64,000 bases of DNA from Methanocaldococcus sp. 16A (GCA_049860595.1 CP187551.1); one strand, 5' to 3'; positions 58,346 through 62,727 are shown, counted from the stretch's first letter. A program made the numbers and translations. Notes: generated from the sequence alone by a model not told the origin.

Positions 58346-58646
58346 ATTTTAAATAGGACTTTCGCAGAAATAACTAATAACAATGAACTTTGATGCCAGA
58401 GGTATCTAATAACGGTTTGAATGCAGAAAATAATATAACTTATTGACTTAATTGAAGCCAGTGGCTTCAAAACTACCTTAGTATATATAAAGTGCATTCA
58501 AACCGTTATACCTTATTTAATATATAAACTGCGAAAGTCCTATTAATTCCTTTTTTATTATATTAAATTTATAAACAAAATTTAAATAGTTGATGATTTA
58601 AAACTAAATAAATAGCTTTATTCCTTGCGAAAGTCCTATTTAAAAT
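58346..58646. mobile_element. Family A element (58354-58542) containing a family C element (58409-58509), plus a second A right TIR
   Basis: A TIRs; C perfect 17-bp TIR ATAACGGTTTGAATGCA; 21-bp perfect inverted repeat 58346-58366/58626-58646. Confidence 0.88.
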
Positions 58647-58675
58647 CTTAATAAAACCATTAGGAGGTTTTTGGT

Positions 58676-59350
58676 TTGAAGCCAAAATATGCATTAAGAA
58701 AGGATATGATTGGAGAATTTACACTAAATAAATCTTTTAATACCTATAGAGGTAAGGTTTTAAAAGCTGATTTTAACGGACCTATAGAAGGCATAGTAAT
58801 GAAAAACAAAAAAGAGCAAATATATTTTTATCCTCTTTTAGCTTTGCACATGGTTAAACCTATGAATTGTGTACCCATAAATGTTATTCCAAAAACATCT
58901 CTCCCTACAAATCCAAAAAATGTACATATTAAAGAGGCATTATCGAGAATTGTTGGTAGAACTTTGAAAGTCTATTATGAGTCTCCAAAAACATCTTATT
59001 TGGGAAGATTGTTAGGTTTTACAAGAGGAATTTTCTCATGGACTTTAGTTTTAGAGATACATGGAGAGGTAGTTTTATTGTTTAATCCAGATTATATTGT
59101 CTATTATGGAACAACGTGGAAGTTTTTAAAAAATAATCCTCCATACAAACCACCAAGATTGATGAATGTTACAAAAACAGCTAACTATTTAAAGAGATGT
59201 CTATTAGAAGATGTAATTATAGAGCCAGAATATCCAAGAATAAATATTGAAAATAAGGTTTTTGTTTATCCTTATGGGGTAGTTTCTAAGGATGATTATT
59301 TAGGAAAAACAGTTGAAGACATATTAAAAGAAAAAGAGTTCTTAATTTAA
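58676..59350 (+). CDS. Hypothetical protein, possible Sm/LSm-like domain
   Basis: GGAGG RBS with TTG start; central segment resembles Sm1/Sm2 motifs. Confidence 0.7.
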   Translation: MKPKYALRKDMIGEFTLNKSFNTYRGKVLKADFNGPIEGIVMKNKKEQIYFYPLLALHMVKPMNCVPINVIPKTSLPTNPKNVHIKEALSRIVGRTLKVYYESPKTSYLGRLLGFTRGIFSWTLVLEIHGEVVLLFNPDYIVYYGTTWKFLKNNPPYKPPRLMNVTKTANYLKRCLLEDVIIEPEYPRINIENKVFVYPYGVVSKDDYLGKTVEDILKEKEFLI

Positions 59351-59622
59351 AGATAATTAAAAGATAATTGATAAAATCTATTTTTAACAGTTAAAGATTT
59401 TAAAAATTTTAAAATTTTCTTTTTTGTTAGTATCTTTCTAATTTAATCAAAAATGGTTTATAATGCTCTATTTTTTTATATAAAAGCTCAAAAAATTTTA
59501 ATTTATTTCAACACCGAAGAGTTTATATATGAGTAATCATTATTTACACTAAAAAATTCTATCACTGTTATATATACTCGTTCATAAATTGAGAAAAACA
59601 TGCGTTTTTGGAGGTGCATTGG

Positions 59623-60120
59623 ATGAATGCTGAAATAAACCCTCTTCATGCTTATTTTAAACTACCAAATACTGTTTCTTTAGTAGCAGGTAGTAGTGAA
59701 GGAGAAACTCCACTAAATGCTTTTGATGGAGCTTTGTTAGATGCAGGTATAGGGAATGTTAATTTAATTAGAATAAGTAGTATAATGCCTCCAGGAGCTG
59801 AGATTGTACCTCTTCCTAAATTACCAATGGGAGCTTTAGTTCCAACAGCTTATGGTTATATTATCAGTGATGTCCCAGGAGAAACAATAGCAGCAGCAAT
59901 AAGTATTGCTATTCCAAAAGATAAGAGCTTATGTGGTTTAATTATGGAATATGAAGGAAAATGTTCAAAAAAAGAGGCTGAAAAAACAGTTAGAGAGATG
60001 GCAAAAATAGGATTTGAAATGAGAGGCTGGGAATTAGATAGGATTGAATCAATTGCTACTGAACATACAGTAGAAAAACTTGGATGTGCGTTTGCTGCAG
60101 CTGCATTGTGGTATAAATAA
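59623..60120 (+). CDS. pdaD: Pyruvoyl-dependent arginine decarboxylase
   Basis: [25 protein letters not shown] self-cleavage site. Confidence 0.95.
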
Positions 60121-60283
60121 GTAAATTAAAATGATTAAAATAAAATCCAAAAATTTAAAACAATACTAAACAATTAAATATGATTAAAATTAATAATTAT
60201 TTGAAGTAAATAATTTAAAGATAATTTTGTTTTAAATTTTTTTGTCTAATTATTGTTTTAATATTGTTTGGGAGGTGAAAAAC

Positions 60284-60655
60284 ATGTTAGAATATTTAGG
60301 AAAACACTTAATATTAGAGTTATGGGGGTGTGACCCAAAAGCATTAGATGACGTTGAAGGGATAGAGAAGATGTTGGTAGATAGTGTAAAGGCATGTGGA
60401 GCAACATTAATCTGTGTAAAAACTCACAAGTTTTCTCCTCAAGGAGCTACAGGAGTAGCTGTTTTAGCAGAAAGCCATATATCAATCCATACCTGGCCCG
60501 AACTTGGATATGCGGCTATGGATATATTTACATGTGGAGCTCATGTTGAACCTGCAAAAGCAATACCAGTTATTAAAGAGTTTTTAAAACCAAAGCATAT
60601 TGAGATTTTAGATTTAAAGAGAGGAATAAGACTAAATGAAGGTGATGTTGAGTGA
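60284..60655 (+). CDS. speH: S-adenosylmethionine decarboxylase proenzyme
   Basis: [26 protein letters not shown] motifs. Confidence 0.94.
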
Positions 60656-61533
60656 ATCAAAACAACAATTTTAAATGTCATATATGGTTTACGGAGTATC
60701 ATAACAACAATGTAGCTTTGTCCGTTAGAGTTAAGGATATCTTATATATGGACAAATCTGAATTCCAAGAAATAGAGATTATCGACACCTATGACTTTGG
60801 AAAGGTTTTAGTCTTAGATAACACTTTTCAAACAACAGAGAGAGATGAATTTATATATCATGAGTTAATTGCTCATATACCTCTTTTCACACATCCAAAT
60901 CCAAAGAATGTTTTAGTTATTGGAGGAGGAGATGGAGGAACTGTTAGAGAGGTAGTTAAGCACAAATCAGTAGAAACTGTGGATTTTGTTGAGTTAGATA
61001 GAAAAGTTATTGAAGCTTGTAAAAAACATATGCCAAAACTAAGTTGCGAAATTGATAATGAAAAGGTTAATTTGATAATAACAGATGGAATTAAATATGT
61101 TGCTGAAACTGACAAAAAGTATGATGTAATTATCGTTGATTGCCCAGACCCTGTTGGACCTGCTAAGGGGTTATTTGAGAAAGAGTTTTATAAAAATGTA
61201 TTTAAATGTCTAAAAGATGATGGAGTTATGGTTCAGCAGTCAGAAAGCCCATTGTACAACTTGGATTTAATACAAAATATCTGTAGATATTTAAAAGATG
61301 CAGGATTTAAGATAATTATGCCTTATACTTATCCAATGCCAACATATCCAAGTGGATTCTGGAGCTTTACATTAGCATCTAAAAAATACAACCCATTAGA
61401 AGTTGATGAAGTAAGAATAAAAGAAGCTTTAAAAGATATGGAAACTAAGTACTATGATGAAGAAGTTCATAAGGGAATATTCCTAGCCTCTCCAAAATTT
61501 TTAAAAGATGCGGTAAAAAAAGCTATTGAATAA
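60652..61533 (+). CDS. speE: Polyamine aminopropyltransferase
   Basis: DEFIYHE, IGGGDGG, YDVIIVD.PDP motifs. Confidence 0.95.
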
Positions 61534-61558
61534 ATTATCTCTTTTAACTTTAATATTA

Positions 61559-61651
61559 TAGACCTTTTCGTAGAATAAAAATTTTTATTGAATATAAACA
61601 CCTAAAGGTATCAAAGTTATCCATATTTTATATTAAGCTGAGAAAGTCCTA
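61559..61651. mobile_element. Family A MITE-like element (degenerate) with TATTA direct flanks
   Basis: TAGACCTTTTCGTAG...CTGAGAAAGTCCTA; TATTA at 61554-58 and 61652-56. Confidence 0.72.
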
Positions 61652-61671
61652 TATTAATACAGGGTGGTTGA

Positions 61672-62526
61672 ATGAAACATTATTTTGTTGATTCATCTAA
61701 ATTTATAATGGCAAATAACTCATTTGAAGAAGCTGATGGAGTTATATTTTCAATACCTTATGATGAAACTACTTCCTTCAAGCCAGGAACAAGGGAAGGA
61801 GGAAATGCTATAAGAATGGCATCATGGGGTTTGGAAACATATAGTCCTATCTTAAATAGAGATTTGTCAGAGTTAAGATATTGTGATTTAAAAGATTTAG
61901 ATTTGTATGGAAGCCAAATGGAAATATTTAACACAATACATCATGTCTCAAGAGAAATATTAAAAAAAGATAAAAAAATAATTATTTTTGGCGGAGAGCA
62001 TTCTATAACTTATCCAATAATTAAAGCTGTAAAAGATATCTATGATGATTTTATTGTCATCCAATTCGATGCCCACTGTGATTTAAGAGATGAGTATTTG
62101 GGAAATAAATTATCTCATGCTTGCGTTATGAGGAGAGTTTATGAATTGACTAAAGATATATTTCAATTTGGTATTAGAAGTGGAGATAAAGAAGAGTGGG
62201 ATTTTGCAAAGAAAAACAATCTCTATTTAAAAATGGATTTGATGAATGAGGAGGATTTAGAATATATAAAGAGTTTAGATAAACCGATATACGTAACTAT
62301 AGATATTGATGTATTAGACCCTGCCTATGCCCCAGGAACTGGAACTCCAGAACCTTGTGGTTTTTCAACAAGAGAGCTCTTTAACTCCATATATTTATTA
62401 AAAGATGTTAAGGATAGAATTATTGGATTTGATATTGTTGAAGTTTCACCAATTTATGATATTGCTAATATTACAGCAATAACAGCGGCAAAAATAGCGA
62501 GAGAGCTTATGTTAATGATTTTATAG
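61672..62526 (+). CDS. speB: Agmatinase (ureohydrolase)
   Basis: GGEHS, DAHCD, DIDVLDP, PGTGTP motifs. Confidence 0.94.
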
Positions 62527-62537
62527 GCACTTTTGAA

Positions 62538-62727
62538 TAGAACTTTCGCAGATATATATTTAATAAATAAGGGAAATATGAGGCCTTTGGCATCAATAAC
62601 AGTCTGAATGCATTTTTTATGTTTATAATGGTAATTTTGAAGCCAAAGGTTTCATATATTCCATAATAGACATTATCCCAGCATTCAAACAGTTATACCT
62701 TAAAAATTTATTCCTGCGAAAGTCATA
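62538..62727. mobile_element. Family A element containing a family C element (62596-62696)
   Basis: TAGAACTTTCGCAG...CTGCGAAAGTCATA; inner ATAACAGTCTGAATGC...GCATTCAAACAGTTAT with TGAAGCC-AAA-GGTTTCA hairpin. Confidence 0.85.

Follow-up and report, generated by a model that had tools for sequence, protein, structure and literature searches.

Nested palindromic elements in Methanocaldococcus sp. 16A: two families with ends like those of known insertion-sequence families and a third that resembles one of them with exchanged ends

Palindromic repetitive elements of Methanocaldococcus jannaschii have been named MJRE1-3 (Suyama, Lathe and Bork 2005, FEBS Lett 579:5281), and passages in two later articles refer to them (PMC2229807, PMC2996958). 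Here we describe three families of short palindromic elements, called A, B and C, in a stretch of 64,000 nucleotides from Methanocaldococcus sp. 16A (GCA_049860595.1 CP187551.1). This whole stretch is the window (G000:C1:1024001-1088000, G000 being the genome under study and G011 its sister genome), and our main subject is its part 58346-62727, where two members of family C lie inside members of family A. The MJRE elements are reportedly palindromic repeats of ~100 bp that fall into three groups and are mostly intergenic. By this description, A, B and C agree with them in genus, size, palindromic form, number of groups and mostly intergenic position; on the other hand, 18 of the 21 genomes searched for C-type ends were without them. 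A, B and C are most likely MJRE1-3 or their relatives, matched by description and not by sequence.

Another group of comparable systems consists of MITEs (miniature inverted-repeat transposable elements) mobilised in trans by insertion sequences (IS) with the same ends, for which one of these articles names RUP with IS630-Spn1 and the MITEs of Sulfolobus (Redder 2001) in the passage concerned (PMC2229807). Families A and B are similar to these elements, being short and gene-less, with IS-like ends (IS701 for A, IS630 for B) and a target duplication, that of B (TA) being typical of its IS family. Unlike the described cases, the IS were not found in the genome under study, A and B match their IS by the ends only, and C has no identified IS. 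In maize and rice, Jiang and Wessler (in the Plant Cell in 2001) are said to have found MITEs nested in MITEs far above chance and to have inferred a target preference. An excess of MITEs within MITEs is seen here as well; in contrast to the plant nests, however, the guest is related to its host by sequence, the insertions belong to one class of site beside a hairpin, and the genome is a compact archaeal one. The enterobacterial ERIC/IRU repeats reportedly have longer forms that arise from internal insertions at fixed sites (work by Sharp in 1997 and by Wilson and Sharp in 2006). These are also imperfect palindromes of ~100 bp with size classes made by extra DNA at specific internal positions. 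However, no transposase has been identified for ERIC, and what is inserted in our case is an entire inverted-repeat element that brings its own ends. Three kinds of behaviour are already known: MITEs may share the ends of an IS, they may lie inside other MITEs, and palindromic repeats may carry inserts at fixed positions. We regard the nested elements as a tidy instance of known mobile-DNA behaviour and not as a new kind of system. The literature searched, which left the 2005 MJRE paper and a 2007 review of archaeal IS outside, contained no assignment of A to IS701 or B to IS630, no end-swapped C and no residence of C beside the A hairpin, and a prior description is possible. With a probability of roughly 0.65, A and B are MITEs of two known IS families and C is an A-derived family with swapped ends.

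All three families have the properties of MITEs. They are short, non-coding and present in many copies, their terminal inverted repeats (TIRs) are 14-17 nt long, and orthologous sites in relatives are occupied in some genomes and empty in others. Target-site duplications were found for A (3-4 bp) and B (TA). Counted in G000 with up to 2 mismatches, the TIR of A was matched 277 times (97 clean pairs, modal length 92 bp, 148 nhmmer loci), that of B 66 times (22 clean pairs, ~113 bp, 31 nhmmer loci) and that of C 20 times (4 clean pairs, ~101 bp, 17 nhmmer loci), an abundance far above chance. Among the 17 C loci, two proved to be plain A copies that were hit via the core, and a half-copy at window 5548-5606 was added by its end match, giving 16 loci with C sequence. 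To follow the distribution among relatives, ends with no more than 1 mismatch were counted across 40 genomes of the order for A and B and across 21 for C. A ends are most numerous in G000 (200) and G011 (151), followed by G021 (68), G015 (58), G010 (47) and G001 (39), with few or none in the rest. B ends number 198 in G011, 53 in G000 and 37 in G021. C ends were counted in G000 (14), G011 (10) and G001 (2), all of which are A-rich genomes. Single C-end matches in G017 and G018 fall within coding DNA and were set aside.

The ends of family A are those of an IS701-family element. In G011, a 1,139-bp IS, identical between copies, is present in eight full-length copies (aa 1-332, no stops) and one nearly full copy. 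Its 332-aa product matches NF049921 (IS701 family) with 293.9 bits, the cut-off being 250, and its ends ATAGGACTTTCGCA and ATAGGACTTTTGCA are the ends of A. G011 has 23 DDE_Tnp_1 matches. The IS is also present in G039 and G015, two genomes of another genus (82-85% protein identity), and as fragments in G008. When these three genomes were scanned, both A-type ends flanked the IS in 7 of 13 loci, 1,114-1,127 bp apart from start to start, and five fragment loci had one end; one of the copies carrying both ends is only 52% identical. Transposase genes flanked by A-type ends exist in G011, G039 and G015. Judged by its sequence, A appears to be a MITE of an IS701-family IS, the likeness being confined to the ends. 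The IS701-family copies of the different genera lie at loci L076, L080 and L084 (G039), L077 and L081 (G015), and L075 and others (G011). Since the proteins are this similar and the IS ends the same across two genera of different families, transfer of the IS between these genera is suggested. In addition, one IS copy of G011 (L068:155-1267) lies at the 3' end of a 370-aa open reading frame (ORF), the last residues of which are read from the IS end; by its look this ORF may encode a RuBisCO-type protein.

On insertion A duplicates 3-4 bp, 3 bp more often than 4. With the element taken as ATAGGAC...GTCCTAT, 30 of 95 copies are flanked by an exact 3-bp duplication (mean of 7.3 and maximum of 16 in shuffles) and 18 of the 95 by an exact 4-bp one (mean of 3.4 in shuffles). 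IS701-family elements are reported in ISfinder to duplicate 4 bp, and the G011 IS has the duplications CCAA and TATA in two of three copies examined, the third not being clear. No match to the G011 transposase was found in G000, G010 or G001, and no PF01609 match in G000. The A elements of G000 are orphans, ~150 copies kept after loss of the enzyme. Since the transposase is gone from G000, A would have been moved in trans by it in the past or in relatives. Other candidate partners were rejected. Pairs of A ends 400-5,000 bp apart in G000 gave four candidates whose longest ORFs look housekeeping by eye, a judgement made without family search; no such pairs of B or C ends were found at this spacing in G000. 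The sole multi-copy IS of G000 (~720 bp, a 216-aa ORF, at least five copies), which is presumably IS6-like, and two further IS types of G011 (1,021 bp and ~1,230 bp) have unrelated ends.

Family B points to a different enzyme. Its TA duplication is visible at a site that carries B in G011 and lacks it in G000, and again at window 5382 by comparison with uninterrupted copies of the A3 subfamily of A. An IS630-family IS of 1,155 bp in G008 (PF13358, 73.2 bits) has ends that match B at 14 of 17 positions. Among 80 metagenomic loci with relatives of the G008 transposase, 18 match a loosened B-end pattern (TATAGT-NN-T-N-T-N-CAAAA, up to 1 mismatch), four of them at both ends; 14 of these 18 read TATAGT-N4-TGCAAAA on at least one end, which B (TATAGTTKTGTGCAAAA) fits exactly. 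No IS carrying exactly the ends of B was found. From these ends and its duplication, B is most simply read as a TA-duplicating MITE of an IS630-family element. B also nests, at TA sites in the arms of A (window 5382) or just outside the ends of A, and not beside the hairpin. Of the 66 B ends, five adjoin an end of A where 0.48 would be expected (P 1.2e-4), and nine lie anywhere in or near A where 3.84 would be expected.

The sequence-only reading had proposed one core in all three families, reused with interchangeable ends. We compared the cores using hidden Markov model (HMM) profiles with trimmed ends, run against the reversed genome as control, and consensus cores scored against 500 dinucleotide shuffles. 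The C-core HMM finds 29 plain A loci, versus two matches in the reversed genome, and the A-core HMM finds five C-only loci. Consensus cores of A and C score z 6.3, 7.3 and 8.5 for subfamilies A1, A2 and A3, and none of the 500 shuffles reaches the score. Because the likeness begins at the inner GCAG of the repeat, C looks like A with its outer 10-14 nt replaced. For B the results are different. The B-core HMM finds one A locus (E 3.7) and no C locus, versus seven reversed-genome matches, and the B consensus scores z 3.0 against A2 (reached by 4 of 500 shuffles), 1.5 against A3, -1.2 against A1 and 0.1 against C; single arms of B reach z 2.6 at most, uncorrected for eight tests. The proposal therefore stands for A and C, which are homologous and share an A-type core under different ends. 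It does not extend to B, which stays at the level of AT-rich shuffles, has a loose layout in common and belongs with IS630, an unrelated transposase family.

That loose layout (GCA - AT-rich arm - AAGG - GC hairpin - CCTT ~8 nt on - TATAAA - TGC) is what makes a single modular core worth weighing. According to this explanation, one unit of hairpin plus CCTTA...TATAAA is present in A, B and C, pairs with unrelated IS ends and is itself the preferred target. The score of B against A2 speaks for it, and so do the facts that A and B each have only their ends in common with their IS and that an A is inserted in C at the matching spot after the C hairpin. However, neither the HMM search nor the remaining consensus and single-arm scores connect B with the core, and B enters A away from the hairpin. 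We consider a core common to all three families quite improbable.

Fifteen of the 16 C loci of G000 lie inside A, which covers 0.75% of the genome and 5.1% of the DNA outside long ORFs. If five C events are assumed, four or more in A have P = 3e-5 at this share of non-ORF DNA. In the seven composites that could be placed by HMM, C lies at ~34-41 of the A model in four and at ~57-63 in three, the hairpin occupying 38-54; three more composites were assigned to the second hairpin side by eye. HMM piece ends are too fuzzy to read a duplication around C. Both relative orientations of C and A occur on each side, that is, all four combinations of side and orientation, and the outer flanks of C are of two kinds only, either the A hairpin or an A end with a spacer ending in AAGGT. 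The enrichment of C within A, beside the hairpin and ACCTT, was thus confirmed, and we consider site-specific nesting of C beside the A hairpin probable.

The two composites at 58353-58543 and 62537-62728 (Table 1) illustrate this arrangement. Direct reading and a repeat finder agree on the 101-bp C copies that the sequence-only reading had placed inside A at 58409 and 62596, adjoining the hairpin and ACCTT; the host A elements are read there as 58354-58542 and 62538-62727. The C copies lie on opposite hairpin sides, as it had also said: in the first composite A is split into model pieces 36-91 and 1-34 (minus strand), in the second into 1-58 and 63-89 (plus strand). Its general picture of non-autonomous inverted-repeat elements lodged in each other is borne out by the family counts and the nests. 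The composites differ in host subtype (A3-like and A2-like), hairpin side and the strand of both elements. The whole first composite is missing from G006, G007, G010 and G001, where the empty site ..TTTTTAATTTC.. gives TAA as the duplication; the second is missing from G010 and G001, where ..ATTTTTGAGCAT.. gives TGA. A single composite copied twice cannot explain both copies because they have hosts of different A subfamilies and C on opposite hairpin sides. Of the earlier claim of two independent insertions, this much holds, and the number of events is not countable.

Composites are also copied. The nest at window 5360-5665 has paralogous copies at G000 C1:927804-928041 and C1:283540-283760, each with A ends and unique flanks. 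All three are built from the end and hairpin of an outer A, a left C half and a complete A3, so that an A lies inside C at the matching spot after the C hairpin; B sits at the same TA in two of the three, and the third has an uninterrupted A3. The three paralogous A-bounded nests show that composites were copied as units. Products of deletion and fusion are common as well. A fusion at the hairpin joins the left part of C to the right part of A at G000 C1:1368789, and chimeras in G011 at L051 and L055 have an A end joined to the interior of C. In G011, a 40-bp mini-A at L116 (G011:C1:1029700-1029880) has two ends with 10 nt between them and is the ortholog of the composite at G000 C1:1498496. 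Thus, elements can collapse to their ends.

The copying of composites brings in an explanation without target choice, in which C hit A by chance once or a few times, old MITEs being among the few harmless landing places in a compact genome, and then multiplied as a passenger, with inversions producing the different sides and orientations. Since composites with two A ends can move as one unit, part of the excess of C in A is due to such hitch-hiking, which inflates the C-in-A count. The confinement of C ends to three A-rich genomes fits this explanation, as does the lack of a C transposase described below. However, the junctions fall within the same few bases every time, the hosts belong to different A subfamilies, all four combinations of side and orientation are present, the excess is strong under five assumed events, and B also nests in A yet uses other sites. 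Passenger multiplication alone therefore seems rather unlikely to us as an account of the nests.

This inflation weakens the case for targeting, and several observations weigh against our interpretation of the three families. One is the age of the copies, which are about equally diverged (C parts 54-80% identical, host A parts 56-83%), so that their identity gives no dating resolution. Because all copies are old, independent insertions are not separable from early events followed by copying and inversion. Second, the search for an IS bearing ends of the C type found none in G000, G011, G001, the genome and viral contig collections, or the 80 IS630 relatives (0/80). Third, no clean duplication surrounds C. 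G011 has an orthologous A of 58353-58543 with the same left flank and lacking C; it reads GGCATCTAAATACCTT where G000 has C between TCTA and ACCTT, and this empty site TCTAAATACC is one base off every simple model. Given that the nearest other C to the 58409 copy is only ~80-81% identical, a recent insertion in G000 is no more likely than a near-precise deletion of the perfectly palindromic C in G011. Further points are that the likeness between A and its IS is weak past ~14 nt of the ends, which leaves the A core without a source, and that no DDE_3 (IS630) gene was found in G011, where the B ends are mostly exact. B in that genome looks like a recent burst without a visible enzyme.

The search for a partner of C returned what we take to be chance matches. 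Scanning with the C end gave hits in at least 117 stretches of genome contigs and in 31 viral ones; all 80 and 31 matches listed are single, and the named records among them are from unrelated organisms, bar one record of the same genus. Since 15 specified bases are too few for collections this large, the matches were treated as chance. An IS200/IS605-derived palindromic element was also rejected: C has perfect 17-nt TIRs, and no C-like ends lie beside the Y1_Tnp (HUH) genes, which are present in G011 and G001 and not in G000. Hence, transposase or HUH genes flanked by the TIR of C were not found in G000, G011 or G001.

Could C be no transposon at all and pass among the ~150 similar A copies by gene conversion or unequal recombination? 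The lack of a clean duplication would be expected in this case, and recombined structures do exist, namely the fusion at C1:1368789, the 40-bp mini-A and the joins of an A end to a C interior in G011. Such spread is nevertheless very improbable, for C has its own perfect inverted ends, and a solo C lies outside any A at G000 C1:1421577; it is missing in G011, where the locus is too diverged to read a duplication. Moreover, the host A parts are no more alike than the C parts. Placing the start of C after a TA gives a reconstructed target that contains AAATAT, the spacer typical of the family, in two copies and lacks one base in others, a hint that C makes a TA duplication.

We propose the following course of events for C as an A-derived element with swapped ends. 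C would have kept the interior of A from the inner GCAG onwards, with its AT-rich arms, GC hairpin and CCTTA...TATAAA arm, under a different outer 14 nt. It would have entered A within the 5-6 AT-rich nt that separate the central hairpin from (A/T)CCTT, a target that is found on both hairpin sides because the A core is nearly palindromic; the TA in this spacer may be the actual target. Composites bounded by A ends could then move again as one unit. Nesting followed by internal deletion or recombination would give rise to chimeras, and this is a likely route by which the A core came under new ends. Target choice by C, its TA duplication and its origin by end swapping are what we infer from these patterns. 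A bolder version, in which C descends from A by end swapping and homes to the spacer beside the hairpin of its parent family, can be offered tentatively, and we think it more doubtful than not; the converse insertion, of A beside the C hairpin, is seen as well. In it, the shared core, beyond the local TA or AT-rich sequence, would guide insertion through a hairpin or cruciform or through a core-binding protein, and MITE cores in Methanocaldococcus would be self-targeting modules that gain ends from other transposon families through nesting and deletion.

The hairpins themselves show paired changes. In 68 copies of A, the stem covaries between subfamilies at pairs 41/52 and 42/51, with 26 and 24 double changes. 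The arms of B change together, with 17 double-compensated cells in eight pairs versus at most one in shifted controls. Of 20 aligned copies of B, about half have TTTT as the 4-nt loop and most of the remainder AAAA, with the asymmetric arms staying aligned; apparently, the tip of the hairpin flips on its own. The paired stem changes agree with a derivation from master copies whose ends matched, or with correction inside the hairpin, and are by themselves no proof of RNA function.

A selected host function, an RNA or DNA signal such as a promoter with an inward- or outward-facing TATA box, a hairpin for transcript end or stability, or a protein site, could otherwise explain the shared core. Compensating changes keep the stem in B and, at two stem positions, in the A subfamilies, TTTATATA lies 2-3 nt inside the A end, and a solo A end stands shortly upstream of an ORF (Table 1). 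Paired changes are, however, also expected from master copies, and copies are present or absent among close relatives without visible pattern. Searches of Rfam up to E 1 returned no family match, only a chance microRNA-like match on the palindrome. The sole RNA data set, a vent metatranscriptome, contains 5% of the words as contigs from relatives, which are uninformative on transcript starts; one of these contigs has an A-type element with another interior. A host function has little probability in our view.

The stretch 58346-62727 is surrounded by ordinary genes, 95-97% identical between G000 and G011, and the repeats occupy three intergenic gaps. The coordinates are collected in Table 1. 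In the first gap, the solo A end is followed by TATTTAAAAT. The solo end is missing in the aligned sequences of G006, G010 and G001, and because these relatives are without it, the promoter region of the ORF may have been remodelled.

Table 1. Repeat elements and genes in the window (positions counted from its first nucleotide)
Feature	Position	Strand	Remarks
Nest of four levels (A, C, A3, B), one side truncated	5360-5665	.	B at 5382-5494 inside A3 at TA; half C; hairpin and right end of another A
B MITE, full-length	34597-34708	-	score 100.4
Formylmethanofuran-H4MPT formyltransferase	57424-58329		
A MITE, A3-like subtype, host of C	58353-58543	-	ATAGGAC...GTCCTAT; TAA duplication at 58350-58352 and 58544-58546
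Central GC hairpin of A copy 58353-58543	58392-58406	.	GATGCC-AGA-GGTATC; C begins 2 nt later
C MITE, 101 bp, between A hairpin and ACCTT	58409-58509	+	perfect 17-nt TIRs; nhmmer score 82.2
Solo right end of A	58620-58639	+	ATTCCTTGCGAAAGTCCTAT; ~37 nt upstream of ORF starting 58676
ORF of 224 aa, conserved among relatives and without Pfam match	58676-59350		
Pyruvoyl arginine decarboxylase, S-adenosylmethionine decarboxylase and spermidine synthase genes	after ORF 58676-59350 in gene list		
Degenerate A copy, A1-like	61559-61651	-	hairpin GATACC..GGTGTT; nhmmer score 32.1; between spermidine synthase and agmatinase genes
Arginase-family protein (agmatinase)	61672-62526		
A MITE, A2-like subtype, host of C	62537-62728	+	TGA duplication at 62534-62536 and 62729-62731
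Central hairpin of A copy 62537-62728	62579-62595	.	TGAGGCC-TTT-GGCATCA; C begins immediately after
C MITE, 101 bp, between A hairpin and ACCTT	62596-62696	-	other hairpin side relative to A orientation; nhmmer score 81.8
DUF169 protein	last in gene list of stretch 58346-62727		

For this locus, the nests account for most of the odd palindromic DNA between genes, which could confound searches for small RNAs or promoters. For the genus, two abundant, long-known and unexplained Methanocaldococcus repeat families become tied to IS701 and IS630. Family C provides a concrete case of how a MITE family may gain new ends and keep its interior, with intermediate chimeras still visible. If the preference for the hairpin side is true, a hyperthermophilic archaeon would offer a small and testable instance of insertion guided by structure or by the element itself.

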